Shown here piece after piece: positions 9,625 through 41,173 of a stretch of DNA of 51,567 nucleotides. The notes under the pieces are model-generated. The model made no database searches, was not told where the DNA came from, and was given only the letters and a program-made list of their open reading frames with translations. Where the stretch lies: positions 1 to 51,567 of the forward strand of contig CAYSBQ010000002.1 of NCBI GenBank assembly GCA_964429315.1, written 5' to 3'. Within the stretch, counting starts at the first letter, position 1. Each line of letters begins with the position of its first letter. The stretch comes from an uncultured Desulfobacterales bacterium. Lineage in GTDB: Bacteria; Desulfobacterota; Desulfobacteria; Desulfobacterales; C00003060. The position numbers were made by a program, and so were the translations under genes.

Positions 9625-9701
9625 GACATAATATTTTTCGCCACATCTAATATCTTTGTTGATTTTATTAAGTTACCAAAACTTACTTGTCTGGAGTACC
9701 C

Positions 9702-10352: not shown

Positions 10353-10396
10353 AATACATTAGTTACCTTTCTAGACTTGATCTGAGGGGAAAGTTT

Positions 10397-12598: not shown

Positions 12599-12622
12599 AG
12601 AAGAGTAAAAGAAGGGGTAACC

Positions 12623-13465: not shown

Positions 13466-13503
13466 GCTTGGGTTATCTTTACTGAATAAGAGGAGTGTCT
13501 ATC

Positions 13504-16766: not shown

Positions 16767-16777
16767 AGCCACCTACC

Positions 16778-19676: not shown

Positions 19677-19695
19677 GATAACTCCTTCTTCAGGT

Positions 19696-23834: not shown

Positions 23835-25292
23835 TCAAATTGTATTCTTTTCGCCTTGATACCGTCTGCTAGCCTCCACCATCGCCTTTGCCCAGGCAGG
23901 TGTTCCCAGGGCATGGATGTGGGTGTATGTTGCAAGGGTGTTCTTGGAGCACAGGCCGTCCCTTTTGCCGTCAATACCGCCACCGCGTATCATCCTGAAG
24001 GCCAGATCCTCGGAATTTCCCTGCCAACTTAATACCTTGGAATAATGAAACTCATGCCCACGGACTCGACTACCTATCTCAAAGTATGGGTTTTGCCTTT
24101 CTACCTCAAAAATAGTGTACCCATGCCCCTGTGGCCGTCTTGAAAACCCAAAAACCACCGGGAAAAGCCCGACCATGGGGTAGACCTCGCCTCCCAGGAC
24201 GAGCTTCTGCCCTAAGTACATGAGTCCGCCGCATTCCGCATACACCGGAAGACCTCCTTTTGCCAAACGGCACAACTCCTTTCGAAATACCTCGTTGGCC
24301 GCAAGGCCTTTTGCCTGTGTTTCCGGGAAACCACCGCCGATATAAAGCCCGTCCAGGGGGGGCAGTCCTGGATCCGCCAGGGCGCTCAATATGACGATTT
24401 CGGCCCCGGCCTGTTCAAGGGCTGTTATGTTTTCCGGATAATAAAACTGAAAGGCGGCATCTTGGATGACACCGATGCGGGGCAGGGTTGCACTCGTTTT
24501 CCATCCGCCGGGGCCATGGGCATCGTCCGGACCCGAAGAAGTAGCCGGCTCTCCACTACTGTTGATACACTTGCCGGAGGCCTTGTTGCCGGCCGGCAGA
24601 TCCGGGGCCTGCCTTGCCACCGCCAAGAGCCCTTCCAAATCAAGGAACTGTTCCGCCATCTCGGCGGCTATGTCTATTGAGTCTGTCGCCCAGGCGTGCT
24701 CTGGTGTGGGGACAAGTCCCATGTGTCTTTCCGGAAACAGCTCTTCTGTGAGCTTGGGTATGGCCCCAAGGACAGGCACATGGCAGTAGGTTTCCACGGC
24801 CTGCGTGACGATCGATTGGTGGCGAGATCCGGCAATGCGATTGAGGATTACACCGGCAATATCGACGTCGGGGCTAAACTGAATACACCCGAAAACCACC
24901 GCCGCCACCGTGCGAGTAGTCTTGGTACAATCAACGACTAGGATCACCGGGGTCCCCAACAACCTGGCCAGCTCGGCCGTGCTGGTGCTCCCTTCCACAT
25001 CCAGCCCATCGTAGAGCCCCCGGTTGCCCTCGACAACACAAACACCTCCGGGCTCAGCCCAAGAGAGAAAAGAGGAACGGATCGTTTCGGCAGGCATAAA
25101 AAAAGGGTCCAGATTATGACACGGCCGGCCGGCCGCAAGGGCCAGCCAACCCGCATCAATAAAATCCGGTCCCTTTTTGAAAGGGATAACGGCCATCCCG
25201 CTTTTCCGCCAGGACGCGATCAAACTCAAGGAAACGATCGTTTTTCCCGAACCTCCACGCAAACCGGCGATCAAAATCCGGGAAGTTGCCAT
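23835..25292 (-). CDS. dsrN: CobB/CbiA-family a,c-diamide synthase; in this context DsrN (sirohaem amidase)
   Basis: 485 aa. GLRGGSGKTIVSLSL...PFKKGPDFIDAGW...NLDPFFM N-domain and a glutamine amidotransferase C-domain (AECGGLMYL, GHEFHYS). Follows dsrD. Confidence 0.85.
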   Translation of the reverse strand: MATSRILIAGLRGGSGKTIVSLSLIASWRKSGMAVIPFKKGPDFIDAGWLALAAGRPCHNLDPFFMPAETIRSSFLSWAEPGGVCVVEGNRGLYDGLDVEGSTSTAELARLLGTPVILVVDCTKTTRTVAAVVFGCIQFSPDVDIAGVILNRIAGSRHQSIVTQAVETYCHVPVLGAIPKLTEELFPERHMGLVPTPEHAWATDSIDIAAEMAEQFLDLEGLLAVARQAPDLPAGNKASGKCINSSGEPATSSGPDDAHGPGGWKTSATLPRIGVIQDAAFQFYYPENITALEQAGAEIVILSALADPGLPPLDGLYIGGGFPETQAKGLAANEVFRKELCRLAKGGLPVYAECGGLMYLGQKLVLGGEVYPMVGLFPVVFGFSRRPQGHGYTIFEVERQNPYFEIGSRVRGHEFHYSKVLSWQGNSEDLAFRMIRGGGIDGKRDGLCSKNTLATYTHIHALGTPAWAKAMVEASRRYQGEKNTI

Positions 25293-25367: not shown

Positions 25368-25610
25368 CTACTCGTCTTCACCCTCGCCACCGGCCTGCTT
25401 GCCAACACCTTTCAGCCCAATCAGGGTCGTGCTTCCACTCGACCAATACTCAAGAGTACCTTCCCCTACCATTTTGTTAACCAGGTTCTTCACGGTCCTG
25501 GGCTTTTCGTCAGGGATCATCTTGTAGAAATCCTTGAGATAGAACTTGGACTTCCCCTTTTTCTTTTCCAGGCTTTCTACGATGGTTTTCTTTGCAGCTT
25601 CTTCGTCCAT
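25368..25610 (-). CDS. dsrD: DsrD, small winged-helix protein of the dsr operon
   Basis: Start chosen at ATG 25610 (MDEEAAKKTIVESLEKKKGKSKFYLKDFYKM...VNKMVGEGTLEYWSSGSTT). About 80 aa, directly after dsrB. Confidence 0.8.
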   Translation of the reverse strand: MDEEAAKKTIVESLEKKKGKSKFYLKDFYKMIPDEKPRTVKNLVNKMVGEGTLEYWSSGSTTLIGLKGVGKQAGGEGEDE

Positions 25611-25636
25611 TTTTTCTCTCTTTCTTTGCCTGCAGG

Positions 25637-26797
25637 CTACTTGATAGCATTCGTAAACTTGAAGTTCGTTGTCTGACGCCACGTGTAGTACGCAGGATCA
25701 CGAAAATCGTCGATGAGATGGTGGGTAAACGGAATGTCACAAACCTCAAACCATCGTTCCCAACCGATCCTCTCGGCCCATTCACCCAGCCGCTCATACT
25801 TGTTGGCATTGGCGGAATAGGCATTAACTATCTTCTTAATGGCACCGGTCATGCTCGGCCAGCGCGGCATCTCGTTGGGGATAAAGGCGACTACCACCTT
25901 GGAGAACTTCGGGGCACTGATTCTGTTGGATATCTTGCCCCCCGCCATGAGGACGATACCATCGCCTTCCGCATCAGCCAGAGGCATGGACGGACACATG
26001 GTGTAGCAGTTGCCGCAGAACATACAGCGCCCCGCGTTGACCGCTACACTCTTTACCTGCTGGCCGTTTACCTCTACTTTGGCCGGCTTGACTGCCGCCG
26101 TCGGGCAAGCCGCTACGGCAAGAGGAATCTCGCACATCTTGTCCAGATACTCATGGTCCAACATGGGCGGTTTGCGGTGATATCCCAGAATAGCGATATC
26201 AGAGCAGTGCACAGCGCCGCACATGTTCAGACAACATGCCATAGAGACCCTGAGTTTTGCCGGGAGTTTCATCTCCGTAAACTCATCAAAGAGTACATCC
26301 ATCGTGGCCTTTACGGTGCCCGAGGCATCCGTTGCCGGCGTGTGGCAGTGTATCCAGCCCTGGGTGTGAACGATATTGGTGATCCCAGCGCCCGTACCGC
26401 CTAGAGGAAACTTATAGCACCCGCCTGGTTGTTTCCGGCTCAGAAGATCGTTTTTCAAGGGCTCAACCTTGTCCTTGCTGTCTACCATAAACTCGATGTT
26501 ATTCCTGGTAGTAAACCGGAGATAGCCGTCACAGTGTTTTTCGGCGATCTCATTTATCTCGCGAATGTGAGACACACTCATGAGGCGGCACCCACCAACG
26601 CGAAGAACATAAAGCTCATCGCCGCTTTCGGCGACGTGAACGCAAATACCCGGCTCCAAGATCTCGTGATAAAGCCATTTTCCCTTATTTTTCTTGATAA
26701 CCGGCGGATAAAACTCTTCGTAATATTTCGGTCCGATATCCGTAATCCGGTCTACCATCGGTTTTTTGGGATCATATCCTGATGAAATAAATGCCAT
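25637..26797 (-). CDS. dsrB: dissimilatory sulfite reductase beta subunit
   Basis: Start chosen at ATG 26797 behind [37 protein letters not shown]..., sirohaem/FeS Cys motifs and a ferredoxin insert (CPTAA...CMFCGNC). Confidence 0.95.
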
Positions 26798-26809
26798 GGT
26801 TGTCACCTC

Positions 26810-28129
26810 CTATCTCTGATGATACTTCCTGAATTCGTTAATATCACGTGTAAAGCCACCCGGAACCTCTTCTTCTTTCCAGAAGACATAGGGGTTGGAC
26901 CGGGGTTCTTGAACCATCTGTGGGATGGCGTCGAAGCCGGTCACTTCAAGCAATTTCTGCAGACCCTGACGCTTCAGCAGCTCGCCAAGACGCTCCCGGT
27001 TTTTGCCTTCTTCCATCCACCAATCCCAAATGGGTTCGATCACCTTCTCCTTGATCTCATCATAAGGAGGCTCAACCTTGATAAAGGGAACAATCAATGT
27101 AGCCATTTGAGCGCCATCCAAAATTGGGGCCTTGGCGCCCGCCAGCAAACTAGCACCGGTATCTTTTCCAATCCTCAAGGCCCTGGGCATAACGTTAATG
27201 CAGTGCATGCAGCGTGTACACTCCCGGTTGTTGATCTCAAGCTTGCTGCCGTCCATTCGCATACACCCGGTAGGACAAAGATCAATGACCTCTTTTTGAA
27301 TGTCAAAAGGACCCCAATCACGGCCTGAATGGGCGCCGCCGTTGGACTTTAGCTCGCCACCCACATACGCCTTGACCGCCTCCTGGTCCATGCGGATATC
27401 ATCTCGCCATGTGCCGATAAATGAAAGGTCCGAACGGGCGATAGAGGCCACACAGCAGTTGGGACAGCCGTCAAACTTAAACTTAAATTTGTACGGAAAT
27501 GCCGGACGATGAAGCTCATCCTGGTATTCCATGGTCAGCTGATAGCAAAGCTCCTGAGTATCGTAACAGGCATACTCACACATGGACTGACCCATACAGT
27601 CGGAAGGCGTTCTCAGGTTCGAACCGGAACCCCCAAGGTCTTGACCCAGGTTGTGGGTCAACTCATAGAAGATCTCCTCCAACTGTACTGTCGTCGTCCC
27701 GATAAAGACAATATCACCGGTAGCACCGTGCATGTTTGTAATGCCGCTGCCCCGTCTCTCCCACAAATCACACAGTTTTTCCAGGTACTCCGCCGTATAG
27801 TAATGTCCCATTACCTGATTGACACGCATCGTGTGAAAGGCTGCAACACCTGGAAACATCTGCGGCTGGTCACAGTACCGGCCGATAACTCCACCGCCGT
27901 AGCCAAACACGCCCACGATGCCGCCGTGCTTCCAGTGGGTCCTGCCGTGCTCGTACGACAATTCCAAGATACCCAAAAGATCTTCGCAACAGTCTTGGGC
28001 GATCTGGTACTCAACATTCTTCTCGTTTTTCTGCCTGGACTCAGCTTCACGCTTAATATCGGAGACAAAGCTCGGCCACGGCCCTGTTTCCAGCTCGTCC
28101 AGTAGAGGTGTTTTATGCTTAAATCCCAT
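26810..28129 (-). CDS. dsrA: dissimilatory sulfite reductase alpha subunit
   Basis: 439 aa. MGFKHKTPLLDELETGPWPSFVSDIK..., CPNCC, CTRCMHCINVMP. GGAGGT RBS. Confidence 0.95.
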   Translation of the reverse strand: MGFKHKTPLLDELETGPWPSFVSDIKREAESRQKNEKNVEYQIAQDCCEDLLGILELSYEHGRTHWKHGGIVGVFGYGGGVIGRYCDQPQMFPGVAAFHTMRVNQVMGHYYTAEYLEKLCDLWERRGSGITNMHGATGDIVFIGTTTVQLEEIFYELTHNLGQDLGGSGSNLRTPSDCMGQSMCEYACYDTQELCYQLTMEYQDELHRPAFPYKFKFKFDGCPNCCVASIARSDLSFIGTWRDDIRMDQEAVKAYVGGELKSNGGAHSGRDWGPFDIQKEVIDLCPTGCMRMDGSKLEINNRECTRCMHCINVMPRALRIGKDTGASLLAGAKAPILDGAQMATLIVPFIKVEPPYDEIKEKVIEPIWDWWMEEGKNRERLGELLKRQGLQKLLEVTGFDAIPQMVQEPRSNPYVFWKEEEVPGGFTRDINEFRKYHQR

Positions 28130-28285: not shown

Positions 28286-29545
28286 TTAACGGGGCCTTTC
28301 GACAGGTACACAGACATTCGCATAAGCCTTGCCTATAAGCTTATTTGTATTGTTTGTCAACAAAAAACTTGGGGCGGCGTTTACAGGTTCGGGGTTACCT
28401 TCCTGCCCGTCACTATCAATACCTTGAATCGCTTCCCACAATAGCTGTGCGTGCCTTTCCAAATTCTTCCTGATCACACCAATATCCGGGGCTGCCTGAT
28501 CGCATGCATCAATCAACGCATAGAATCGGCCTTTAATGTCCTCTTTATCAAGGCTCTTGGCATATTTGACAAACTCATCGAAAAACCCCACTTTGATTAT
28601 GCATTGCTCCTCCTTAAACCTGATCCCCTCCAAAAACCCGCCTAACGTCGAACCCACACATTCATCGCCTGCCCATGCAACGGCGCCAACGCCATCGAAG
28701 CGATCCAGTCTCATTCTTACTGAAAGATTTAAGAAGAAAAAGAGCAATGCCTCATGTACGGAAGCACCTTCTATCATGGCGACATACTGTCTGGCCGTCA
28801 CCAATCTGACATCAAGGCAATCGCCCCGGGTTCGGATAATGAAGTCGCCGGCCGCATGGTGCCACGGGAAGATCTGCTCAAAGGTCTCGATATCATAGTA
28901 GAGTGTCAATATCTTGGCAGTCTGACTGTAGGCCTGCTCGATCTCGGATCGAGAAAGGCAATAATTGCCCTTTCTTCTATTCCAAACGACAACTCCTTGT
29001 ACCCCAATAGCCGTATCAACCGATAAATGGAATTCATCATACCCATCAAACCAATCCGCCAGGAACATGGCAAGGGGGCTGCCATCCTCACTCTTAAAAT
29101 ACGCCCTGGGCAAAAAGGAGAAACCGTGTTTGCTGTTCAGGCGCTGCAAGACGCCAAACTCATGATATAACCTTCCTTTTCCCCGCTCGGTGATCGCAAC
29201 GTTCATCGCAAAAACAGTGGTAGTATCACCGATTATCACCTCGATTCTAGCAGGGTGATAGTCACTGCCATGCTTTTCCGCGTATATCAGTATCTCTGCC
29301 ACGTCAGCAGCGGGAATCTCTTTTGCCAGTTTCGCGCTGATGGCATCAATTAAGGACTTACAGCCATTCCTTGAAATCACATCAGTGATCCCCTTAAAGT
29401 ATTGGCCGTATGTCAGGGCTGGGATTTGTCCGGGGGCCGGTTCATTGCGAAACAATCGTATGGGCATCCGACAGAAATGGCGGTCAACAGGGAGGTAACC
29501 ATGAGGGGAGGGGGCCAGGCAGGTAGTTTTCGGGGTTTTCGTCAA
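28286..29545 (-). CDS. hypothetical protein, about 400-419 aa (start uncertain: TTG at 29545 or ATG at 29467)
   Basis: Long uninterrupted ORF, co-oriented with and 10 nt after the TPR gene. Only a weak kinase-like WHHAAGDFII motif. No confident family call. Confidence 0.55.
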   Translation of the reverse strand: MTKTPKTTCLAPSPHGYLPVDRHFCRMPIRLFRNEPAPGQIPALTYGQYFKGITDVISRNGCKSLIDAISAKLAKEIPAADVAEILIYAEKHGSDYHPARIEVIIGDTTTVFAMNVAITERGKGRLYHEFGVLQRLNSKHGFSFLPRAYFKSEDGSPLAMFLADWFDGYDEFHLSVDTAIGVQGVVVWNRRKGNYCLSRSEIEQAYSQTAKILTLYYDIETFEQIFPWHHAAGDFIIRTRGDCLDVRLVTARQYVAMIEGASVHEALLFFFLNLSVRMRLDRFDGVGAVAWAGDECVGSTLGGFLEGIRFKEEQCIIKVGFFDEFVKYAKSLDKEDIKGRFYALIDACDQAAPDIGVIRKNLERHAQLLWEAIQGIDSDGQEGNPEPVNAAPSFLLTNNTNKLIGKAYANVCVPVERPR

Positions 29546-30404: not shown

Positions 30405-30737
30405 CTAACCCCGGCCCGTACCCCTCCCAAACACATCCCTGCCCGCAAGAGGATTATAAAGTTTCAGAATTGCAAACTTCATAATGTCCAACGAATTATT
30501 GTCCAACACAAATCCCAACAAGGTGTCCTCCGGCTCTGCCGGAAGCACGCACGCGTTTGATGAATCAAAAGTCAGGTCTGGGAACCCCTTGACCAGCTTC
30601 TTCTTCTCCTTCTTGTTGACAGGCACCTGAATTACCTTTTTGCCGTCTATTTCCTTTGCTTGGTCACCCAATCCAGCCTCTTCGATCTTCCTGAGCTTTT
30701 CATCATCCAAAAAAACGTTGATGTAATAGTCTGCCAT
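30405..30737 (-). CDS. hypothetical 110-aa protein with a Gly/Arg-rich C-terminal tail
   Basis: Start chosen at ATG 30737 behind GGGAGGTG. MADYYINVFLDDEKLRKIEEAGLGDQAKEIDGKK...KLYNPLAGRDVFGRGTGRG. Has its own promoter and terminator. Confidence 0.6.
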   Translation of the reverse strand: MADYYINVFLDDEKLRKIEEAGLGDQAKEIDGKKVIQVPVNKKEKKKLVKGFPDLTFDSSNACVLPAEPEDTLLGFVLDNNSLDIMKFAILKLYNPLAGRDVFGRGTGRG

Positions 30738-30902: not shown

Positions 30903-30931
30903 CTTATATTATGGAAGCGAACTCCTGTCAA
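30903..30931 (-). promoter_or_regulatory. near-consensus sigma70 promoter TTGACA-17-TATAAG
   Basis: Minus strand: tcTTGACAggagttcgcttccataaTATAAGcac. One mismatch. It would give a ~155-nt leader for the 110-aa gene. Confidence 0.5.
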
Positions 30932-30969: not shown

Positions 30970-32298
30970 TCACGATGTCGCAAAGAAACTTTCCATTACC
31001 TTGTTGAATTCTTCCCCCCGCCACGCTGCGGAAGGTTTTGTGGCCTCAGACACCAGGATGTCCTGTTTCAAAAAAGGCAAAAAGTCCGAAACCCTTGGGA
31101 TAACTACCCTGACTACCGGAAAGTCCAGTACCGGATGCGTCTGCTTTAATATGATGGGTTCGGTGTTCAGGACCTTGCATATCCCCTTGATTTTCTCAGT
31201 TTCGCCAAGGATGTCATCGACCGTGACGTTCCCATAGTCTTTGGTTTCACCTTGCTCAAGAAACGAGATGTCTTTCGGAGAAATGCCGCATTTCATTAAC
31301 AAATAGAAATTATCTACCTGAGACCTGTGGATAACAGGCCTGTCCAACTGCGGGCGCGGAGTCGATAATGTCTCCCTGCCTTGCATGCTTTCCGTAAAAC
31401 ACCTTGTCAGGGCTTCGTCGAGATTGAAAGAAACCCCCGGTATGAGTATTCTATGCTCCAGCCGATCGGAACGTAGATTATGGTTAATGAAAAGGACACC
31501 TATGGCCGGCAATAGACCATCAAAAGAAAGATCCTTGATTATAACATCAACTTTGTTTTCCTTATAGAACGCGATCATACGCCTTATGCTCTCGTTTTCT
31601 ACTGAATCAGGGTCGATTGATGGTATTATCTTTTCAGGTCTGATCGTCTCTATTTGGGCATGACGTTCAAAGATTTCACAGGAGGCCTGAACCATTGCCT
31701 CTTCAATGGTGTTTCCTGCCGCAAGGCCGTTAGAGGCGTGAATGTAGGCAATAAAATTAACAGGTACCTTTATGGTTTTTTTACGGTTTACCGAAAACCC
31801 GTCAACCCAATGATGGGCCATCCGGCTGTTTTTGATATCTTCGATGTCCGCTTTGCGCAAATGCGTCTCGTTTCCCAGCAAGTCCTCTATCTTTAAGGGA
31901 TCTTCTACGTCGTCCTGATGGGCATGGATATACCCATCCATCCATTCATAATTCAGGAACCTGTTGATCTCCTTGTTGTAAAGCGCGGGAAAGTTAAACC
32001 TTACCTCTTCTTCAAAAACCGGATAGAATAACCCGGCGCTGAAGCGTTCAGCCAGTTCTGCATATGCGCTTGCCTCGGCAAGCTCCGGGGTAATGCCTTT
32101 TCCGTTACAAACGATCCTTATGGAATCGATCCAGACCCGCCCCCAATGTATATTCTCCGACACCCGGAAAGGAGCGTACTCGGCACTAAGTCCCAACTTG
32201 CGGAATCCAGTCTTTATCCTCTCAATGGTGTTGGCGGGAATGTCGCACTTGCCATACTCGTTTCTAACACAATTTTGAAATTCCATTCTATTCGCCAC
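30970..32298 (-). CDS. stand-alone YcaO-family ATP-dependent amide-activating enzyme
   Basis: 442 aa (GTG at 32298 or ATG at 32286). SAYAELAERFSAGL and ASNGLAAGNTIEEAMVQASCEIFERHA are hallmark YcaO motifs, as is the C-terminal DFPVVRVVIPRVS. Confidence 0.85.
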   Translation of the reverse strand: MANRMEFQNCVRNEYGKCDIPANTIERIKTGFRKLGLSAEYAPFRVSENIHWGRVWIDSIRIVCNGKGITPELAEASAYAELAERFSAGLFYPVFEEEVRFNFPALYNKEINRFLNYEWMDGYIHAHQDDVEDPLKIEDLLGNETHLRKADIEDIKNSRMAHHWVDGFSVNRKKTIKVPVNFIAYIHASNGLAAGNTIEEAMVQASCEIFERHAQIETIRPEKIIPSIDPDSVENESIRRMIAFYKENKVDVIIKDLSFDGLLPAIGVLFINHNLRSDRLEHRILIPGVSFNLDEALTRCFTESMQGRETLSTPRPQLDRPVIHRSQVDNFYLLMKCGISPKDISFLEQGETKDYGNVTVDDILGETEKIKGICKVLNTEPIILKQTHPVLDFPVVRVVIPRVSDFLPFLKQDILVSEATKPSAAWRGEEFNKVMESFFATS

Positions 32299-32352
32299 TA
32301 TTTATTTTTCTTGTCTCCTTAGGAGTAAATCGTGGGGCTTCCTGCAAGTCTG

Positions 32353-33162
32353 TCACTCATTGCGTAGGACCATACACGCCCAGCTGCGTTCCGTCGCCTC
32401 TTGAACCAAGGCGAGGCCCTGTTCAATATAGGTCCTGGTAAGAGACATCAACAGATCCTCTTTGAAACCGGAAATAATCACGACTCCGCCCCGGAGTATT
32501 TTTTTTGCTACTGCAGATGAAAGATTCTTTAGCGTAGGTGCGGCCAGATTGGCAAGAATGATGGAAAAGGCAGTATCCAACTCCTCAAAAGGTCTTTCTG
32601 TGATATAAACCTGCTCGGCAACATTATTGATTGAAACATTACGGCGGGCCTCAGCTATGGCACACGGATCAATGTCGTTGCCAACCACCTCTTGCACCCC
32701 TAGGTGCGCCAGTGCAATCGCCAGGACTCCGGAACCCGTACCAATATCCAAGCCGGCGAGAGGGCCGCTTGGAAGCATTTCGGCCTCACGGCGGAAAAGC
32801 CGATCCAGCGCCCTTAAAATCAGACAGGTGGTTGGATGGGCACCTGTCCCAAAGGCAGCCCCAGAGGCAATGTCGATTACTATATCCCCCGGATGTGCCT
32901 GATAAGCCTTCTCCGGCGGTTTGAGTACAATCCTTTCTGAAATACGAACGGGTTTATTAAAGGATGGTTCTAAAAAGCTTGTCCCATATATATATGTGTA
33001 CGCCAGTTCCTCAGAGGCGACCATCTGCCTGACGGCCTGCCTGACCACCTTTCGGTCAAGACCCGAGGCGTCAGAAACACTCCTTTCCACCTCGGCTGAA
33101 GTCATTTTCTCTTTGGCATCAACAATTGCGCTATATATTATGCGCTTCAGTTCTCGGGTCAT
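32353..33162 (-). CDS. PrmA-like SAM-dependent (protein) methyltransferase with a divergent N-terminal domain
   Basis: 269 aa. IDIASGAAFGTGAHPTTCLILRALD and LDIGTGSGVLAIALA...VGNDIDP match the PrmA catalytic core. The first ~90 aa look like a winged helix (ELAYTYIYGTSFLE). Confidence 0.75.
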   Translation of the reverse strand: MTRELKRIIYSAIVDAKEKMTSAEVERSVSDASGLDRKVVRQAVRQMVASEELAYTYIYGTSFLEPSFNKPVRISERIVLKPPEKAYQAHPGDIVIDIASGAAFGTGAHPTTCLILRALDRLFRREAEMLPSGPLAGLDIGTGSGVLAIALAHLGVQEVVGNDIDPCAIAEARRNVSINNVAEQVYITERPFEELDTAFSIILANLAAPTLKNLSSAVAKKILRGGVVIISGFKEDLLMSLTRTYIEQGLALVQEATERSWACMVLRNE

Positions 33163-33168
33163 AACTCA

Positions 33169-33516
33169 TCAATCATGGCCCTGCGCTTTTAAAAAATCAC
33201 GATACCAACAGGAAAACTCGTACATCCCCTTAAACCGCTCGTCATCGTTAATGATACCGAGACATATTTCCCACGCCCCTTGGCCAAAGGCATTACTGTA
33301 TTTCTCCGCATCCCAGTCAGCCAAAAACTCCCGGGCTAATTGGAGGGCTGTGTGCCTTGTCTTGTCTTTACGCATGTCAATGGGATCTTTCGGCTCAATA
33401 AAAGGGTCCCACTTGTCATAGCCCTCTTTCTTGAGGATATGCTCCCGTCGTCTGGCTGACATGCAGTCGAAGATGGTTCTTTTTCTTGCTTCCTCTTCAG
33501 GTGATAGTTTTCTCAT
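33169..33516 (-). CDS. hypothetical 115-aa protein
   Basis: Tightly packed between the YkgJ-type and methyltransferase genes (gaps 41 and 6 nt). No motif recognised. Confidence 0.55.
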   Translation of the reverse strand: MRKLSPEEEARKRTIFDCMSARRREHILKKEGYDKWDPFIEPKDPIDMRKDKTRHTALQLAREFLADWDAEKYSNAFGQGAWEICLGIINDDERFKGMYEFSCWYRDFLKAQGHD

Positions 33517-33557
33517 CTTGCTAATTCCTTGTTTGACGACTTCGTAAAAAGTCCATC

Positions 33558-34205
33558 CTATTTGGCGCCAAAATAGTCTTCGTTGTAATCCGTTATCAGG
33601 GCTGCCGAGGGGGGCACAAGACTCATGTGCATCTTCGCGTTTCCTGAACCAATCTCTTCGAGGAGTTGCCTGGAAAGCTCGAAGAGACGATCATTTATCT
33701 TGTCAAGGTTTACCGTAGGGTAAGCTGTGCCCTCCTTAAAGTCCGCCTTTTCGCAGGTGTGGGCCTTGCCTCCAATAGAGGTGGGAATTCCGTAGATCCT
33801 GCAAGTGATAGGTCTTCGATCATATAAATCACACAGATTTTCCTCGTTTAGAAGGGGACAAGGGACCCGCTCCCGAGATAATTCCAAAAAAACCTCTTCC
33901 GGGGGTTTCCCTTGATCTATATACATCTTTTGGAGCTTCTTCTTGATTTGATAGTACTTGCGATCCGCTGTTTCCGCCCGTTCCAAGATGGGCTCCCGTT
34001 CCTTTTCACTCAAGGATTTGTTGAAATGGCGGCTTATGTAGACTGCTTCAATAAGCGTGAGGTCAAATACGGCATTACAACAATCGGAACAATGGATTCC
34101 GCAGCGTATAAAGTCTTTGTGAGACTCTTGCATCCCCTTAAAGATTTTGTCAATCTCAGTAACGAGGGTTTCGTATTTTTCGAAGGTCTTTGAAAGATTT
34201 AGCAT
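33558..34205 (-). CDS. YkgJ/UPF0153-type cysteine-cluster (CxxCxxCC family) protein
   Basis: 215 aa. CGIHCSDCC, then PCPLLNEENLCDLYDRRPITCRIYG, typical of the putative Zn/Fe-chelating family. GAGGAG RBS. Confidence 0.75.
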   Translation of the reverse strand: MLNLSKTFEKYETLVTEIDKIFKGMQESHKDFIRCGIHCSDCCNAVFDLTLIEAVYISRHFNKSLSEKEREPILERAETADRKYYQIKKKLQKMYIDQGKPPEEVFLELSRERVPCPLLNEENLCDLYDRRPITCRIYGIPTSIGGKAHTCEKADFKEGTAYPTVNLDKINDRLFELSRQLLEEIGSGNAKMHMSLVPPSAALITDYNEDYFGAK

Positions 34206-34237
34206 AATCGCTCCTCACAAAATTCTAAAGTGGGCAT

Positions 34238-34266
34238 CTGATAACAATATTGGTTGACCCTGTCAA
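34238..34266 (-). promoter_or_regulatory. sigma70-like promoter TTGACA-17-TATCAG for the YkgJ-to-YcaO operon
   Basis: Minus strand: cgTTGACAgggtcaaccaatattgtTATCAGatg. Confidence 0.4.
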
Positions 34267-34342: not shown

Positions 34343-34750
34343 ATGAAGAAAGTAAGGGCTTTTATCCTCTGTTTCATTTTCGTCTATTCCGGCATAGCCT
34401 TGGCCGGCGATGATCCAATGAAAGGCCCGTGGGGATACCATGACGAAGAGACTTTGTGCCAACAACATGCAAAGGATTCGCGGAACCTAGGGACTATTTC
34501 TGTGAGGCTTTACAGAAGATACGTTTCACCCATTGACGGAAGTGATTGTCCGATGTATCCGTCATGCTCCCAATATGGTATAGAGTGCCTTGAAAAACAC
34601 GGCCTTTTCGTTGGCTGGACAATGATCTGGGATCGGCTGTATCGTTGTGGACGAGATGAATTGAGACTATCTCCGTGGACCATCTTGGATGGCGAACTGA
34701 AATGCTATGATCCAGTAAAGCATAATGATTTTTGGTGGAGCCGAAAATGA
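34343..34750 (+). CDS. YidD (DUF37) domain protein with an N-terminal signal peptide and extensions
   Basis: 135 aa. MKKVRAFILCFIFVYSGIALA signal. YRRYVSPIDGSDCPMYPSCSQYGIECLEKHG is the YidD core. Confidence 0.7.
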   Translation: MKKVRAFILCFIFVYSGIALAGDDPMKGPWGYHDEETLCQQHAKDSRNLGTISVRLYRRYVSPIDGSDCPMYPSCSQYGIECLEKHGLFVGWTMIWDRLYRCGRDELRLSPWTILDGELKCYDPVKHNDFWWSRK

Positions 34751-35679
34751 ATAGGCGCCTTGTTATCTTTGTAACACTTTTAGCCGTTTTGTTGTGTGAC
34801 CTTCCCCTGGCTCATGGTCAGATATCCGTTGTTATAAAGGCCGATGAACAATTCCGGTTTGCTGAAAATTACTTTCAAGAAGGAGAATACTACAGGGCTA
34901 TCAGCGAATATGAACGGTTTTTGTACTTTTTCCCTGAGGATCATCGCGTGGAATTGGTCTCATATAAGGTGGGGCAATCCTATCTCAACGGTAAACGCTT
35001 CAAGCAAGCCATTGGCGCCTTCAATGTCCTGATCGAAAAATATCGTAACACAGAATTTGCTGTAAAAGCATACTTCAGATTGGCCGAGTGCCACCAGAAA
35101 TTGAAAGATCTCCAAAAGGCCCTTGCCGCGCTGGACAAGCTATTGGCAGTATCCGATAAAACCGAAATAAGAGACGAGACATTTTACCGCAAGGGATGGA
35201 TCTATCTCGATATGGACAAATGGGAAAAAGCGCAAACTTTTTTTGACAAGATTAGCCCGGCAAATAGGGAGATCTACCGACTTAAGCAGCTATCTGAAGA
35301 CATGAACAAAAAAAAATTCTTGAAAATTAAAAACCCCACAGCAGCCGGCTTGCTTGCAATCCTGCCCGGGGCGGGTCATCTCTATTGTGAAAGGTATCAA
35401 GATGCCTTCATCGCTTTTTTGCTAAATAGTGCCATGATCTTAGCTGCATACGAAGCCTTTGACCATAACAACGAGGCACTGGGGGGATTAATCACTTTTT
35501 TTGAGTTAGGGCTATATTCGGGCAATATTTACAGTGCCGCAAACTGTGCCCACAAATACAACCGGAAACAGAAGCAAGGATTTCTACAATATCTAAAGGA
35601 GCATTCGGTATTAGAGGCTTCTACAGGAAAAATAGATCAGGGTCACGCAATAGCCTTGTCCTATAAGTTCACCTTTTGA
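34747..35679 (+). CDS. TPR (BamD/YfiO-like) protein with a C-terminal membrane domain
   Basis: Start chosen at ATG 34747 (ATGA overlap with the YidD-like stop). Signal-like MNRRLVIFVTLLAVLLC, TPR units, then hydrophobic AAGLLAILPGAGHLY...ITFFELGLYSGNIY. Confidence 0.7.
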   Translation: MNRRLVIFVTLLAVLLCDLPLAHGQISVVIKADEQFRFAENYFQEGEYYRAISEYERFLYFFPEDHRVELVSYKVGQSYLNGKRFKQAIGAFNVLIEKYRNTEFAVKAYFRLAECHQKLKDLQKALAALDKLLAVSDKTEIRDETFYRKGWIYLDMDKWEKAQTFFDKISPANREIYRLKQLSEDMNKKKFLKIKNPTAAGLLAILPGAGHLYCERYQDAFIAFLLNSAMILAAYEAFDHNNEALGGLITFFELGLYSGNIYSAANCAHKYNRKQKQGFLQYLKEHSVLEASTGKIDQGHAIALSYKFTF

Positions 35680-35758: not shown

Positions 35759-38700
35759 ATGCGTGATCCAGCCATCTACATAAAAGGGGCCAGGCAAAAC
35801 AACCTCAAGAACCTTGACCTTAAAATCCCCCTCAACCAGATCACAGTAGTCACCGGGGTTAGCGGATCCGGGAAGTCTTCGCTCGCCTTTGACACCTTGT
35901 ATGCCGAAGGGCAACGCAGGTACGTGGAGACCTTCTCACCTTATGCCCGACAATTCATGGACCGTATGGATCGACCTCAAGTAGATCGTATTGAGGGAAT
36001 CCCGCCGGCCATCGCCATTGACCGCAAGGCTCCGGTGCGAACCTCCCGCTCCACGGTGGGGACCATGACGGAATTGACTGACTACGTGAAGCTCCTCTAC
36101 GCCCGTCTGGGACAACTCCACTGCAAAGGATGCGGTAGACCGGTCATACCTGAAACCCCACAGTATGTATGGGAACTCTTGCAGGATCTGTCCGATGGTA
36201 TCCAGGTCGTCATTACCTTTCCCTTCTCCGTTAAAGGGAAAGAACCCGTCACAGGGTACAAAGAACTGGCACGGCTCGGCTTTGATCGCTTTTTTTGTGA
36301 CGGCAAGGTTTGGCCCATTGAGAACAAAGGGGCAAAGGAAGATCTCGAATCGTTCCATATAGTTGTAGACCGGGTCATACTCCGAAAAAAGGACAAAACG
36401 AGAATCATAGCCTCCCTGGAGCAGGCCTTCCATTTCGGGCAGAGCTACTTCGATGTTTGGATCAAGCCTGCCGGCGCTGATTCTAATTCAAACGAACAGA
36501 ATCAACACCTTTCTTTCAGCAATACCCTGGAATGTGCTAAATGTAAGATCTCCTATACCCCTCCACAGCACAACCTCTTTTCTTTTAACAGCCCCCTTGG
36601 AGCCTGTGAGAATTGCAGGGGATTTGGTCGGATCATCGATATTGATTTGGACCTCGTCATCCCGGACCCCAACCTTTCCCTGGAAGACGGCGCCATCAAG
36701 CCTTGGGGAGACTGGCTAGACCATCGCATGGAATATGAAGACTTGATAGCCTTTTGTCGGCGCAAGAAAATACCAACCCGGATTCCATTTCAAGACCTCA
36801 AAAGCCACCACAAAGATGCCTTAATTGAGGGTACGTCCCGCTACTACGGAGTACGCGGTTTTTTTAACTGGCTCGAATCGAGAAAATACAAGATGCATGT
36901 GCGGGTTTTCCTTTCCCGATACCGTCTATACACGATTTGCTCTCGGTGTAATGGAACGCGCTTTAAGGAAGAGGCCCTGCTGTATCGACTTGGGGGGCTG
37001 AATATCGGCGAGCTTTACGCATTGAATGTAGATAAGGCCAATGAGTTCTTTGCATCGCTCCGCATACCACCCTTGGATGAAGCCGGCATGCTTGTCTTGG
37101 ACGAAATCCGAAACCGGCTAAGATATCTTCGAGACGTAGGGCTCGGTTATCTTGCTCTCAACAGGCAATCCCGTACTCTTTCCGGGGGTGAGGTCCAGCG
37201 CGTGGCCTTGGCTTCCGCCCTCGGGTCTTCACTGGTCAACACCCTCTATGTCCTTGATGAACCAAGTATCGGCCTTCACCCCAGAGATAACCATCGCCTT
37301 ATCCGTATAATGAAGGGTCTAAGAGACCTTCAGAACACATTGGTTGTAGTGGAGCATGACCCTGAGATCATCAGTCAAAGTGACCTCATCCTCGATCTCG
37401 GCCCCGGGGCAGGCAAGCAGGGTGGGAATGTGATGTATTTCGGTCCCACGGCGAGCGTGAATAGCTCCCTTACCGGACAGTATCTCAAGGGTGAGCGCTT
37501 CATCCCAGCGCCCAAGAAACGGCGAAAACCTAAGAAGGGACTGTGGCTCACGATCCAAGGGGCCTGCGAACACAATCTAAAGGATATAGATGTGCATATC
37601 CCCTTGGGTCTTATGGTCTGTTTGACCGGTGTTTCAGGCTCCGGCAAATCGACTCTGGCAGAAGAGATCCTTTATAAGGCCATCAAGTGGGCCAAGTGGG
37701 ACCCACGGGGCCGCGCCGGTCATCACAAGGCAATTGAAGGTATGGAACATATTGTGGACGCAATCCTTGTAGACCAACGACCCATTGGACGGACTCCCAG
37801 AGCAAATCCTTTGACTTATACCAAGGCGATGGGCCCAATCCGCAACCTCTTGGCTAACACACATGATGCGTGTGCTGGTAAGCTTGGGCCGAGCCATTTC
37901 TCCTTCAATGTAGCTGGAGGAAGATGTGATACATGCCGCGGGGAAGGATTTGAAAAGATTGAAATGCAGTTTCTCTCTGATGTCTATGTCTCTTGCCCTG
38001 ACTGCAAAGGGAAGCGATTCAAAGACAAGGTCCTGAAGGTAACATACAAAGGGAAAAACATCTACAATATCCTTTCTATGACTGTGGATGAGGCCCTTAG
38101 CTTTTTTGAAGATCAACCAAAAGTGGAAACTGCCCTAAGACCGATGGCAGATGTGGGACTCGGTTATGTACGCCTTGGACAACCCATAAACACATTTTCC
38201 GGAGGTGAGGCCCAGCGGCTCAAGCTCTCCCGATACTTAAAGGAGAGCACCGGCAATTCTAAACTTTTTATCTTTGACGAGCCGACAACAGGTCTTCATT
38301 TTAACGACATTGAAAAGCTCCTGGCTGTCCTGCAAAGGCTTGTCGCTGAAGGCAATACGGTATTGCTGATAGAACATAATATGGATGTCGCAAAGGCGGC
38401 TGACTGGATTATTGACTTGGGGCCTGAGGGTGGAGAAGATGGAGGTCAAATCGTTGCAACCGGGCCACCTGAAAAAATAGCAAAAGAAGCGGGATCTCAT
38501 ACAGGCCGGTTCCTTAAGGCCTATTTAACCAACCGGGGTCGTTTAGAACCCGACAACCTCTCTGATCCTGGGTCCAAGATGGTTTTCGCCACTTCCACGC
38601 TGCCCGTCTCACATAAAGGGAAAGGTTTTGGAACAAGCAATGCCGCAGCGGTGACCACCATTTCAGAACCGTCCGATCTAAGACAGTCTATGGGCTTCTC

Positions 38701-41173
38701 GTCGGCTATTACCATAAAAGGCGCAAGAGAGCATAACCTCAAGAATTTGACACTGTCCATTCCACGCAACCAACTTGTGGTCCTCACGGGAGTGTCCGGC
38801 TCGGGTAAATCGACACTCGCCTTTGACATCCTCTTCGCCGAAGGACAGCGCCGCTATTTGGAAAGCCTAACCCCTTATGTGCGACAATATATACAGGCGC
38901 TTGAACGCCCCGAAGTAGATGTCATATCCGGCCTTCCGCCTACGGTTGCTATTGAACAGCGTATCAGTCACGCCAGCCGTCGCTCTACAGTAGCAACCCT
39001 AACGGAAATCTACCACTTTTTGAGATTGTTATACAGCAAACTGGGTTCTCAACACTGCCCCGGCTGTGGACGCAAATTGACCGCCCGGAGCCCGGAACAA
39101 ATAGCAATTCAAATCAAGCGGCGTTACAAAAACAAGAAAGCGATTGTCCTGGCTCCCAAGATATCAGGAAGAAAAGGCTTTCAAAAGGATGTCTTGGCCC
39201 AGGCGCGGCGAAAAGGCTTTTCGGAAGCAAGGATTGATGGTGTTATGACCGGGCTTGAAAAGCACATGGCCCTCGCACGCTACCACGAACACACTATCGA
39301 GGTTGTTGTTGGGCGACTTCCTGCGGCAGATCCGGACAGCGTTGTGTCACAGGCCCTTAAAGAAGGCAACGAACACCTCATCATCGTCGACTCCAGTGGA
39401 CATGAAGAAGTCTTCAGTCAACATGCTACCTGCCCTGTATGCGGTCTTGGCCTCCAAATGCCGGACCCTCGGCTTTTTTCTTTTAACAGCAGCCATGGAG
39501 CCTGTCCCGAGTGTGATGGTCTGGGTGACATAGGACACAAGGATGAACGCCGCGTGTGTCCCCGCTGCCGTGGAAGTCGTCTCGGTCAAAGGGCATTGGC
39601 AGTAAAGATAGGCGGCCATACTATCTGGGACCTGGTACAACAACCATCCGACAAAATCTTTTCAATCTTGAAAGGTCTTTCCTTTCCCAAAGAACAACTA
39701 CCCATTGCAGAGCCAATCCTGGCAGAGGTCCTAACGCGACTTGCTCTGCTTAACCGGCTCGGATTGTCCTATCTTTCGCTAGGCAGAAGCGGCGACACCC
39801 TCTCCGGGGGTGAGGCCCAACGAGTCCGGCTGGCAGCTCAACTCGGATCAAACCTGACAGGCGTATGCTATATTCTGGATGAGCCTACCATCGGGCTTCA
39901 TGCCAGGGACAATAGGATGCTCCTTAATGCTCTAGTGGAACTCAAGGAAAAAGGCAATTCAATCCTGGTAGTAGAACATGATGAGGAGACCATTCGAGCT
40001 GCCGACCATATCATCGATCTCGGCCCGGGAGCCGGCCGGGATGGGGGACAAATCGTGGCAAGTGGCAGCCTGAAAGATCTAAAGAGCGTTGCCGAATCTA
40101 TTACCGGCGCCTGTCTTAACTCAATAACCCGCACGGTTACCTCCCGTCTCAGGCCGTATAACAAGCTACCCGGCCTCACCATTCACAAGGCAAAAGAACA
40201 TAACCTAAAGGGGATAGACGTGGGGTTTCCCCTGGGAACCTTGATTTGTGTGACGGGTGTATCGGGATCGGGAAAATCTACCCTTCTTAAAGATGTTTTG
40301 TACCACGGAGTGCGTGAACGTCTATTGAAGAAACCCTCCGGCATAAGAAACTATGAGAAAATAGAAGGCTGGCAAAATCTAAACCGTATACTGGAAGTAG
40401 ACCACCGCCCCATTGGCCGCACCCCCCGCTCTGTGCCAGGTTCTTATGTGGGATTTTTGTCCGATATAAGAAGGCTTCTTTCTAACACCCCCGAGGCACG
40501 TGCCCGAGGATATGAGGCCGGTCGGTTTTCTTTCAATGTGGCTGCCGGTCGTTGTGCGGTCTGCAAAGGCCATGGCAGCCTAAAAGTTGCTATGAACTTT
40601 CTGCCCGATGTCTATATACACTGTGAGGTATGTGGTGGAAGACGATTTGATCAGGAAACCCTGGCAGTAACCTACAAAGGAAAGAATATTGCTGAAATCC
40701 TGGATCTTACTTTCAAAGAGGCCGGAGACTTCTTTGCTGCCATTCCTTCGATTTGTAGGCCGGTTTGTTTTGTATGTGATATCGGCCTAGGCTATCTGCG
40801 CCTCGGTCAAGCCAGCCCTACTCTTTCCGGGGGGGAGGCCCAACGTATTAAACTAGCCAAAGAATTGGCCAAGCCGTCAAAGGGCCAAGATCACAACACG
40901 CTCTATATCCTGGATGAACCAACCACAGGGCTACACCTTGACGACATTCACCAACTCTTAAAAGTCCTGCAAGCGCTCGTTGATCAAGGGAATACTGTGG
41001 CTGTCATCGAACATAACATGGAAGTCATAAAAGAGGCCGACTTCATAATCGACCTTGGTCCCGAAGGAGGAGATCATGGGGGGCAGGTCGTGGCAACAGG
41101 TTCACCCTTGGAACTTCTTTCCAACCCAAAGACCTCTCATACAGCTTGCTATCTAAAGGAATATCTTGTGTAG
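35759..41173 (+). CDS. uvrA: tandem-fused double UvrA (two complete UvrA-like units, four ABC nucleotide-binding domains, 1804 aa)
   Basis: Four Walker A motifs (GVSGSGKSS/T) and four signatures (LSGGEVQR, FSGGEAQR, LSGGEAQR x2). Unit 1 is about aa 1-922, the linker about 60 aa, and unit 2 about aa 984-1804. UvrA-type zinc modules are present in both units. Confidence 0.9.
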   Translation: MRDPAIYIKGARQNNLKNLDLKIPLNQITVVTGVSGSGKSSLAFDTLYAEGQRRYVETFSPYARQFMDRMDRPQVDRIEGIPPAIAIDRKAPVRTSRSTVGTMTELTDYVKLLYARLGQLHCKGCGRPVIPETPQYVWELLQDLSDGIQVVITFPFSVKGKEPVTGYKELARLGFDRFFCDGKVWPIENKGAKEDLESFHIVVDRVILRKKDKTRIIASLEQAFHFGQSYFDVWIKPAGADSNSNEQNQHLSFSNTLECAKCKISYTPPQHNLFSFNSPLGACENCRGFGRIIDIDLDLVIPDPNLSLEDGAIKPWGDWLDHRMEYEDLIAFCRRKKIPTRIPFQDLKSHHKDALIEGTSRYYGVRGFFNWLESRKYKMHVRVFLSRYRLYTICSRCNGTRFKEEALLYRLGGLNIGELYALNVDKANEFFASLRIPPLDEAGMLVLDEIRNRLRYLRDVGLGYLALNRQSRTLSGGEVQRVALASALGSSLVNTLYVLDEPSIGLHPRDNHRLIRIMKGLRDLQNTLVVVEHDPEIISQSDLILDLGPGAGKQGGNVMYFGPTASVNSSLTGQYLKGERFIPAPKKRRKPKKGLWLTIQGACEHNLKDIDVHIPLGLMVCLTGVSGSGKSTLAEEILYKAIKWAKWDPRGRAGHHKAIEGMEHIVDAILVDQRPIGRTPRANPLTYTKAMGPIRNLLANTHDACAGKLGPSHFSFNVAGGRCDTCRGEGFEKIEMQFLSDVYVSCPDCKGKRFKDKVLKVTYKGKNIYNILSMTVDEALSFFEDQPKVETALRPMADVGLGYVRLGQPINTFSGGEAQRLKLSRYLKESTGNSKLFIFDEPTTGLHFNDIEKLLAVLQRLVAEGNTVLLIEHNMDVAKAADWIIDLGPEGGEDGGQIVATGPPEKIAKEAGSHTGRFLKAYLTNRGRLEPDNLSDPGSKMVFATSTLPVSHKGKGFGTSNAAAVTTISEPSDLRQSMGFSSAITIKGAREHNLKNLTLSIPRNQLVVLTGVSGSGKSTLAFDILFAEGQRRYLESLTPYVRQYIQALERPEVDVISGLPPTVAIEQRISHASRRSTVATLTEIYHFLRLLYSKLGSQHCPGCGRKLTARSPEQIAIQIKRRYKNKKAIVLAPKISGRKGFQKDVLAQARRKGFSEARIDGVMTGLEKHMALARYHEHTIEVVVGRLPAADPDSVVSQALKEGNEHLIIVDSSGHEEVFSQHATCPVCGLGLQMPDPRLFSFNSSHGACPECDGLGDIGHKDERRVCPRCRGSRLGQRALAVKIGGHTIWDLVQQPSDKIFSILKGLSFPKEQLPIAEPILAEVLTRLALLNRLGLSYLSLGRSGDTLSGGEAQRVRLAAQLGSNLTGVCYILDEPTIGLHARDNRMLLNALVELKEKGNSILVVEHDEETIRAADHIIDLGPGAGRDGGQIVASGSLKDLKSVAESITGACLNSITRTVTSRLRPYNKLPGLTIHKAKEHNLKGIDVGFPLGTLICVTGVSGSGKSTLLKDVLYHGVRERLLKKPSGIRNYEKIEGWQNLNRILEVDHRPIGRTPRSVPGSYVGFLSDIRRLLSNTPEARARGYEAGRFSFNVAAGRCAVCKGHGSLKVAMNFLPDVYIHCEVCGGRRFDQETLAVTYKGKNIAEILDLTFKEAGDFFAAIPSICRPVCFVCDIGLGYLRLGQASPTLSGGEAQRIKLAKELAKPSKGQDHNTLYILDEPTTGLHLDDIHQLLKVLQALVDQGNTVAVIEHNMEVIKEADFIIDLGPEGGDHGGQVVATGSPLELLSNPKTSHTACYLKEYLV

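Follow-up and report, generated by a model that had tools for sequence, protein, structure and literature searches.

Four adjacent genes of an uncultured sulfate-respiring lineage raise a simple question: does a YcaO gene beside the sulfite reductase genes dsrAB belong to one modification cassette with its neighbors, or is it a unit of its own? The genes lie in a 51,567-nucleotide (nt) stretch of contig CAYSBQ010000002.1 (assembly GCA_964429315.1) from an uncultured Desulfobacterales bacterium, here called the window, to which positions refer. They are co-oriented open reading frames (ORF) on the minus strand, running from 34205 to 30970, and encode in order a YkgJ-type cysteine-cluster protein, a conserved protein of 115 amino acids (aa) named u115, a methyltransferase similar to PrmA that uses S-adenosylmethionine (SAM), and a YcaO protein named YcaO438. 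A sequence-only reading of this DNA had described them as one operon for backbone modification with gaps of 41, 6 and 54 nt, and the ORF list agrees with this layout (YcaO ORF as called).

We found that this gene set does not hold together in relatives, and because of this the region is seen as three juxtaposed modules: YkgJ-u115-PrmA-like (module 1), YcaO438 with a DUF6955 protein (module 2), and TPR210-u419-dsrABDN (module 3). Lineage-specific juxtaposition of these modules, together with a partner-less YcaO438 whose target is probably a conserved protein, is the explanation of the whole that we favor, with somewhat less than even confidence.

Gene order around YcaO438 in related genomes

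Through a scan of species-representative genomes we obtained 79 loci with YcaO438 homologues, 58-81% identical to the protein of the window. All are from metagenome-assembled genomes of uncultured Desulfobacterota, including SEEP-SRB2, Eth-SRB1/2 and Ca. Desulfaltia. Gene order was compared by tblastn with the window proteins, clustering of neighbor ORFs and a neighbor-joining tree. Twenty-nine loci with at least 5 kb on either side of the YcaO gene formed the well-flanked set.

The genes of YkgJ, u115 and the PrmA-like protein were all within 5 kb of YcaO438 in five of the 29 well-flanked loci, and co-oriented with it in one; most YcaO438 loci have none of the three. Co-oriented sets of four genes were found only in the window, in its two closest relatives (L084 and L085, 83-95% identity) and in L012, L070 and L107, which form one sister lineage. 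About 15 other loci contain all four genes with YcaO on the opposite strand, and in these a gene for a 772-aa B12 radical-SAM protein usually lies between u115 and the methyltransferase. The proposal of a single cassette thus failed the synteny test, and the four-gene operon as described is not a conserved entity.

The one recurrent genomic association of YcaO438 is with TPR210-u419-dsrAB, TPR210 being a 210-aa protein of tetratricopeptide repeats (TPR) and u419 a conserved protein. dsrA/dsrB was located within 5 kb in 14 of the 29 well-flanked loci (co-oriented in ten), and TPR210/u419 in ten. At least four arrangements of this linkage can be distinguished, and they are spread over several branches of the YcaO tree. 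YcaO438 is immediately upstream of dsrA in L034 and L040, and the order YcaO>TPR210>u419>dsrAB occurs in L022, L023, L025, L031, L037, L043 and L058; TPR210 directly follows YcaO438 in the same orientation in these seven, in L063 and in others. L063 has dsrAB, one gene (x<) and then YcaO>TPR210>YkgJ, with u419 on the opposite strand. In L018 and L027, of SEEP-SRB2 type, the YcaO gene is followed by two opposite-strand genes, dsrABD, two YkgJ-type genes and a gene of the DVU0298 family. A further dsr-linked arrangement has the YcaO gene inverted.

Some observations weigh against the explanation that we favor. In roughly half of the well-flanked loci all neighbors are unrelated housekeeping genes, and in the non-dsr branches these include aminotransferase, DapA, GlnD/PII, an extracytoplasmic function sigma factor and HU; a link to dsr is thus no requirement, and part of it could reflect synteny inherited within one order. 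In addition, YcaO438 and the PrmA-like gene directly adjoin each other in over 20 loci, in most of them on opposite strands, and L005, with an unrelated context, has a different PrmA-type methyltransferase adjoining YcaO438 and divergent from it. YcaO438 may have a functional tie to methylation.

These neighbors also speak for one dedicated cassette, in which YcaO438, the methyltransferase, YkgJ and u115 would act on one protein or peptide target. So does the close, same-strand spacing of the genes, seen in the window, L084 and L085 and, as an independent case, in L012, L070 and L107. Module 1 of relatives is moreover faced by a YcaO of its own, with 576-589 aa; a logic of YcaO plus methyltransferase may exist for this module. 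However, that YcaO is a different paralogue, about 25% identical to YcaO438 and absent from the window, and the trio occurs without YcaO438 both beside dsr (L082, L098, L111, L112) and beside mnmE (19 loci). Considering also the counts and inverted strands given above, we regard the single cassette as unlikely.

Two other recurrent genes were noted around the YcaO438 loci. One, cluster c25, encodes a conserved 75-aa protein with no Pfam match (L005 at 2228-2455, L006, L009, L014, L029, L030 and L042); in the non-dsr clade it directly precedes YcaO438 in the same orientation, except in L005, where it is about 7.5 kb upstream. This protein could be a partner or substrate of YcaO438 in that clade. 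The other encodes a HEAT-repeat protein of the DVU0298 family (NF045662, 168 bits) with an N-terminal zinc ribbon (L018, L027, L051, L063, L001 and L008). It recurs near dsr, accompanied by small TPR proteins and by one or two genes of YkgJ type; a literature search on DVU0298 gave nothing useful.

The recurrent position beside dsrAB-dsrD-dsrN could also be understood if the substrate of YcaO438 were a small molecule from the metabolism of sulfur, oxyanions or cofactors, e.g. a sulfur compound or a sirohaem amide made by DsrN. In Desulfovibrio vulgaris the YcaO-TPR fusion DVU2210 and Sat contribute to molybdate sensitivity, and oxyanion activation was proposed (PMC7774982). DVU2210 resembles YcaO438 in being a YcaO of a sulfate reducer; a similar fusion follows dsrD in L022, and a separate TPR protein follows YcaO438 in many loci. 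But proteins of the DVU2210 type are 24-27% identical to YcaO438, which has no fused TPR, and TPR210 shows a generic similarity to the TPR region of the fusion (25% identity, E 6e-11). Furthermore, all biochemically characterized YcaOs act on backbone amides of peptides or proteins (PMC13063428), and no supporting biosynthetic genes are consistently adjacent. A small-molecule substrate is very unlikely in our view. The fusion in L022 (18492-20219, 575 aa, architecture like DVU2210) is directly downstream of dsrD in a locus that also contains YcaO438, and is a second kind of YcaO beside dsr genes.

The YcaO protein and its family

YcaO438 matched PF02624 with an E value of 5.6e-48 (164.4 bits, cutoff 25.7). 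Its two acidic ATP/Mg2+ blocks, AELAERF and NTIEEAMVQASCEIFERH, are aligned with those of Escherichia coli YcaO (GEYFERL and NTRNEARVQGLSEVFERY) and of MJ1094 of Methanocaldococcus jannaschii. The motifs named in the sequence-only reading (ELAERF and CEIFERH here, AFGTGAHPTT in the methyltransferase) are all present in the translations. The true start is probably the ATG at 32286, since homologues begin with MEFQN; this gives 438 aa and a preceding gap of 66 nt.

Among NCBIfam models, only the generic domain TIGR00702 was passed (91.8 bits, cutoff 75.65). The best match was NF040716, the E. coli-type YcaO_for_S12, at 104.3 bits against a cutoff of 700, and TIGR03266 (McrA-glycine thioamidation) and TIGR03604 (SagD type, azoline-forming thiazole/oxazole-modified microcins) gave 68.7 bits against 365 and 58.8 bits against 219, respectively. 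A PxPxP C-terminus is the criterion for azoline-forming cyclodehydratases of the SagD type. The C-terminus of YcaO438 reads ...EEFNKVMESFFATS, with no such Pro-rich end; its SFF/SFY tail is kept in the YcaO438 clade and in relatives of about 600 aa. No TPR Pfam match was found in YcaO438, whose chain ends at residue 438 and whose alignment reaches residue 395 of the 586-residue E. coli YcaO. The isoelectric point (pI) is 5.44, with a family median of 5.85 and a range of 5.1-8.6. The nearest PDB sequences are MJ1094 (E 4.4e-13) and E. coli YcaO (E 1e-12).

A search of 1.84 billion representatives placed the family in one or two clusters at 50% identity. The next relatives, at 38-47% identity, are unannotated YcaOs of about 600 aa, which have an insertion of about 170 aa before the SFF/SFY tail and likewise fall short of every curated subfamily model. 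Names and taxonomy of the distant relatives were uninformative, and the one gene context looked up among the 600-aa proteins was unrelated. A Rosetta-stone link between YcaO438 and TPR210 through the insertion was considered and dropped, as the insertion has no TPR or any other Pfam match. From these profile and cluster comparisons, YcaO438 belongs to an uncharacterized YcaO clade outside every curated subfamily, seen only in uncultured Desulfobacterota.

The stand-alone character of YcaO438 was maintained. Pfam searches of nearly all sizeable ORFs of the window revealed no TfuA, ThiF/E1 or nitroreductase, and no TfuA, E1-like protein or dehydrogenase was found among the recurrent neighbors in the 79 loci. 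No Cys/Ser/Thr-rich intergenic ORF was detected between 28 and 36 kb. The absence of partners and precursor from the window, as claimed earlier, agrees with these scans.

Conservation of the protein is high. Between the window and SEEP-SRB2-type loci YcaO438 is 73-75% identical, while DsrA and DsrB are 61-67% identical; overall its conservation is similar to that of DsrAB, and is higher in the deepest comparisons. YcaOs that act on a static protein substrate diverge slowly, and those associated with peptides made on the ribosome and modified after translation (RiPP) diverge fast (PMC13063428). YcaO438 is unusually conserved and free of RiPP hallmarks, and so most likely acts on a conserved protein of the cell and not on a peptide natural product.

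The DUF6955 protein

The gene of the DUF6955 protein adjoins YcaO438 in about 25 loci, divergent from it in all but the window. Its C-terminal sequence YNPLAGRxxSGRGTGxR was kept in 22 of 25 distinct sequences. A minimal RiPP-like pair might be proposed from this, with the Gly-rich tail of the 110-aa DUF6955 protein as YcaO438 substrate, and the divergent unit is kept in two different contexts. But conservation extends along the full length of the protein, unlike precursors made of leader and core, and in three homologues the tail is replaced by unrelated sequence. Protease, transporter and a partner with a recognition element are all absent. Many YcaO438 loci (contexts C, D and E; L001, L003, L012, L070) have no DUF6955 gene within 10 kb. 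Such a pair is highly improbable.

The YkgJ-u115 module

The profile search proposed with the earlier reading gave matches for the YcaO, PrmA and CxxCxxCC domains, and none for u115. YkgJ matched PF03692 with 30.6 bits (cutoff 23) over residues 35-151, and has no sequence relative in PDB. u115, with no Pfam or NCBIfam match, has 921 homologous clusters, all unnamed or 'hypothetical', and its invariant residues include W36-D-P-F-x-E-P42, G97-M98 and W104-Y105. Its AlphaFold2 model contains five helices at moderate confidence (predicted local distance difference test, pLDDT, 79; predicted template modeling score 0.41); no fold match was found in PDB, and searching PDB sequences with a profile gave nothing either.

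A metagenome scan anchored on u115 gave 80 loci, 63 of them informative, and in 61 of these YkgJ is immediately upstream of u115 and co-oriented. The u115 family consists of two subfamilies. In the distant one (59-65% identical to u115 of the window), the string jag-mnmE-YkgJ-u115 was found in 19 of 20 informative loci (Table 1), with no YcaO and no dsr within 10 kb. Sometimes the string continues with a PrmA-like gene whose N-domain is the same; this homologue, seen for example in L122 and L159, is 35-40% identical to that of the window. The YkgJ/u115 pair may be tied to functions in tRNA or translation.

Loci of the close subfamily usually have the 576-589-aa YcaO facing YkgJ, and after u115 come the radical-SAM gene and then the PrmA-like gene. 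Next in line are either YcaO438 with DUF6955 and the dsr string, or genes that are unrelated; L095 and L108 have a CarD-like protein and a NiFe hydrogenase there. L080 has YkgJ>u115>B12-radical-SAM>PrmA-like>, then YcaO438 on the opposite strand and DUF6955>TPR>u419>dsrABDN. L082 has the same string without YcaO438 and DUF6955, and with a different YcaO of 576 aa divergent from YkgJ. In L116 YkgJ and u115 are kept, and a methyltransferase remnant of 64 aa (10350-10541) lies between u115 and a TPR gene. Neither the B12 radical-SAM gene nor the second YcaO is present in the window.

Both of these genes were noted in their own right. The second YcaO (L082 4405-6135, L057 16173-17942, L087, L091, L103, L108 and others) has an N-terminal region of about 260 aa without assignment; its best NCBIfam match is the McrA-thioamidation model at 118 bits, below the cutoff. 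In about 12 of the 15 close-subfamily loci it forms a divergent pair with YkgJ-u115-B12 radical-SAM-PrmA-like, and together they may be the real YcaO-containing modification cassette. The radical-SAM protein of 772-777 aa (L008 12722-15046, L080 7293-9611, L082 7578-9896), whose gene most relatives have between those of u115 and the PrmA-like protein, contains B12-binding and radical-SAM domains, a peptidyl-prolyl isomerase domain like that of FKBP/trigger factor, and TPR repeats. This architecture suggests a protein substrate.

The methyltransferase

The PrmA-like protein matched PF06325 (E 2.7e-45) over profile positions 106-295 only, with 1-105 unmatched. Its C-terminal domain superposes on PrmA of Lactobacillus delbrueckii (3grz) with a template modeling score of 0.90 and a root-mean-square deviation (rmsd) of 2.1 A by Foldseek, whose top matches are PrmA structures; for the full length against Thermus thermophilus PrmA the rmsd is 7-9 A. 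The PrmA-type catalytic domain of the earlier reading is supported by these matches. Its impression of a winged helix at the N-terminus is also supported by the AlphaFold2 model (pLDDT 89), in which residues 3-66 are predicted as helix-helix-helix-strand-strand, i.e. three helices and a beta-hairpin. Scores were 120.5 bits against TIGR00406 (cutoff 183) and 106.4, 101.8, 101 and 79.1 bits against the NF0017xx PrmA models (cutoffs 188-327 bits). The NCBI name of the family is '50S ribosomal protein L11 methyltransferase'.

No canonical PrmA was found in about 2 Mb of related loci, in which the L005 gene and the remnant of L116 were the only other PrmA-type sequences. The L005 gene (9056-9679) encodes a 207-aa methyltransferase without the N-domain, divergent from YcaO438. 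McmA was tried as a precedent for the PrmA-like architecture and was kept as a loose analogy only, as its paper gives a C-terminal SAM-binding domain and an N-domain without assignment.

Ordinary ribosome housekeeping would account for much of this, if the methyltransferase were the L11 PrmA of the lineage and YcaO438 modified uL16 or uS12. Both Pfam and fold place the catalytic domain nearest to PrmA, the NCBI family name is that of the L11 enzyme, and jag-mnmE, a translation-related neighborhood, precedes the trio in other Desulfobacterales. YcaO_for_S12 is the best NCBIfam match of YcaO438, and its very high conservation would suit a ribosomal protein or another static substrate (PMC13063428). 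However, the PrmA-like protein is under all PrmA equivalog cutoffs, its predicted winged-helix domain lies outside the PrmA profile, and L116 retains just the remnant. Grouping of YcaO438 with the E. coli type, which the earlier reading had raised, was not found: the score is 104 against 700 bits, the C-terminal TPR domain is missing, and the pI is 5.4 (median 5.85) against 4.4. The family is also narrow, confined to uncultured Desulfobacterota. We consider the housekeeping explanation rather unlikely, and the PrmA-like protein is treated as part of a separate module.

Comparison with known systems

E. coli YcaO was formerly called 'S12 methylthiotransferase accessory factor'. It thioamidates uL16 at the Met82 backbone without TfuA (PMC13063428). 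YcaO438 is similar in being stand-alone, with no TfuA or E1-like partner found and with housekeeping-like conservation, and the NF040716 alignment covers most of its YcaO domain. It differs in lacking the TPR dimerization domain of about 150 residues (438 against 586 aa) and in belonging to Desulfobacterota, not Pseudomonadota, often beside dsrAB. In the uL16-modifying group the pI is about 4.4, complementary to basic uL16, and the C-terminal TPR domain has about 150 residues (PMC13063428).

The best PDB match, MJ1094 (6pe3), acts on McrA glycine independently of TfuA and is of similar size (385-438 aa). The McrA YcaO modifies a key respiratory enzyme of an anaerobe, and can work without TfuA in sulfide-rich organisms (PMC5589413, PMC13063428). 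However, YcaO438 is bacterial and not archaeal, its organism has no methyl-coenzyme M reductase (MCR), and the alignment is limited to the central 150 residues or so.

With PrmA of T. thermophilus (2nxc/3cjq) and L. delbrueckii, the PrmA-like protein shares the catalytic Rossmann domain and the GxGxG/AFGTGxHPTT region, and it differs in its N-terminal 66 residues or so, a predicted three-helix winged helix unmatched by the PrmA profile.

The modification set of MCR comprises YcaO/TfuA thioglycine, B12 radical-SAM C-methylases and the SAM methyltransferase McmA (PMC7058361). Relatives of the window likewise cluster one or two YcaOs, a B12 radical-SAM protein and a SAM methyltransferase beside genes of a terminal respiratory enzyme. 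The likeness is an analogy only; the window has no radical-SAM gene or second YcaO, and the modules also occur away from dsr.

Proposed functions of the modules

Characterized YcaOs share an ATP/Mg-dependent phosphorylation of the backbone amide oxygen, the chemistry of the superfamily. YcaO438 would carry out the same step, most likely with a conserved protein of the cell as substrate and not a natural-product peptide. Since no TfuA was found and the lifestyle is sulfidic, with McrA and uL16 as precedents, direct thioamidation with ambient sulfide would be the most plausible outcome. The leading candidate targets are DsrA/B, u419, TPR210 and the DUF6955 protein, all of the dsr neighborhood, because of the recurrent genomic association. 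With its usually divergent DUF6955 gene, YcaO438 moves and flips as a unit of its own.

Module 1 is pictured as a module of protein-methylation type, whose YkgJ-u115 core is invariant across Desulfobacterales; in most lineages the module lies directly downstream of the tRNA-modification gene mnmE. In the wider clade it also has the B12 radical-SAM gene and the facing YcaO, both presumably lost in the window. The most likely substrate of the PrmA-like enzyme is a protein, perhaps L11 or some other translation component, whose methylation would be independent of YcaO438.

To our knowledge, no modification of DsrAB has been reported. We might speculate that DsrAB or a tightly dsr-associated protein bears a backbone thioamide made by YcaO438, to which relatives would add radical-SAM or SAM methylations, giving a set like that of MCR; this is improbable at present.

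Gene layout and other features of the window

The features are collected in Table 1. The dsrAB neighborhood reported beside the four genes was found again by profile search. u419 has the invariant motifs WHHAAGDF and NLxxRxRLDR, and its gene precedes dsrA in 22 loci. It gave no Pfam, NCBIfam or PDB match, even with a profile of 19 sequences; a kinase-like assignment suggested by WHHAAGDF was rejected after Pfam on the 19 members and the PDB profile search were both empty. The window also contains tatA/tatC and cytochrome c3, and from its gene content the region appears to be part of a sulfate-respiration island.

Table 1. Positions of features in the window, and related loci with the jag-mnmE-YkgJ-u115 string
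Feature	Position or loci	Strand	Basis or remark
YkgJ-type CxxCxxCC cysteine-cluster protein, 215 aa	33558-34205	-	PF03692; first gene of module 1
u115, conserved uncharacterized protein, 115 aa	33169-33516	-	constant partner of YkgJ
PrmA-like SAM methyltransferase with N-terminal winged helix (predicted), 269 aa	32353-33162	-	PF06325; last gene of module 1
YcaO438	ORF 30970-32298 (442 aa); probable gene 30970-32286 (438 aa)	-	PF02624; module 2
DUF6955 protein, 110 aa (ATG at 30737)	30405-30737	-	PF22271, E 3.4e-25
TPR210, 210 aa	29556-30188	-	multiple TPR Pfam families; first gene of the string upstream of dsrAB, module 3
u419	28286-29545	-	conserved, upstream of dsrA; 381-385 aa as called in relatives
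dsrA	26810-28129	-	TIGR02064, 594 bits
dsrB	25637-26806	-	inferred: directly after dsrA; 61-89% tblastn matches beside dsrA in related loci
dsrD	within 25368-25682	-	PF08679
dsrN-like amidase	23835-25292	-	CobB/CobQ-type GATase_3 and CbiA domains
dsrMKJOP-like genes	15606-20733		window
Qrc-like genes	9687-14736		window
Promoter-like TTGACA-17-TATCAG	34238-34266	-	upstream of the YkgJ gene; direct reading
Promoter-like TTGACA-17-TATAAG	30903-30931	-	second site, between YcaO stop and DUF6955; unlisted by the scan
jag-mnmE-YkgJ-u115 string	L122, L129, L130, L134, L136, L138, L140, L141		Desulfobacterales metagenome contigs
jag-mnmE-YkgJ-u115 string, more loci	L148-L154, L157, L159-L162		Desulfobacterales metagenome contigs

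A promoter TTGACA-17-TATCAG had been assigned to the four genes. The letters are as written, but the site is no better than chance, because promoter-like sites are not enriched over shuffled sequence (13 in 7 kb against 9.3 +/- 3.2 by consensus scan). It has no T at the last position of the -10 box, and the scan omits it. A nearly identical site is found in L084, a relative too close to be informative. No significant terminator-like fold was found after the YcaO stop (z = -1.07), and Rfam, searched with a permissive threshold, revealed no RNA elements between 27.5 and 36 kb.

Divergent from the YkgJ gene, on the plus strand, are a gene for a YidD-domain protein of 135 aa with an apparent N-terminal signal or anchor, and a TPR/BamD-like gene (315 aa) whose start it overlaps (34343-35679); this is not the usual rnpA-yidD-yidC context. 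The plus-strand ORF at 35759-41173 (1804 aa) is predicted to be two complete UvrA-like units fused head-to-tail, in which the N-terminal block IKGARQNNLKNL reappears near residue 950 as IKGAREHNLKNL.

Significance

The failed cassette test keeps the four genes from being annotated as a biosynthetic cluster, and the comparison revealed YkgJ-u115 as a widespread, uncharacterized pair linked to mnmE. On its profile matches, YcaO438 would be a new uncharacterized variant within the known YcaO superfamily. Apart from the molybdate study of DVU2210 (PMC7774982), we found no literature linking YcaO with dsrAB.

Two protein substrates of YcaO are known, McrA of methanogens and, since 2026, uL16 of E. 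coli, and more are expected by the authors (PMC13063428). YcaO438 is a clean candidate for a third protein-substrate YcaO, because it is partner-less, shows no RiPP hallmarks, is highly conserved and stands repeatedly beside dsrAB. Its carriers drive sulfate-dependent oxidation of methane and alkanes in marine sediments, and include partner bacteria of methane- and ethane-oxidizing archaea. If the target lies in the dsr system, dissimilatory sulfite reduction would for the first time be linked to an enzymatic backbone modification.

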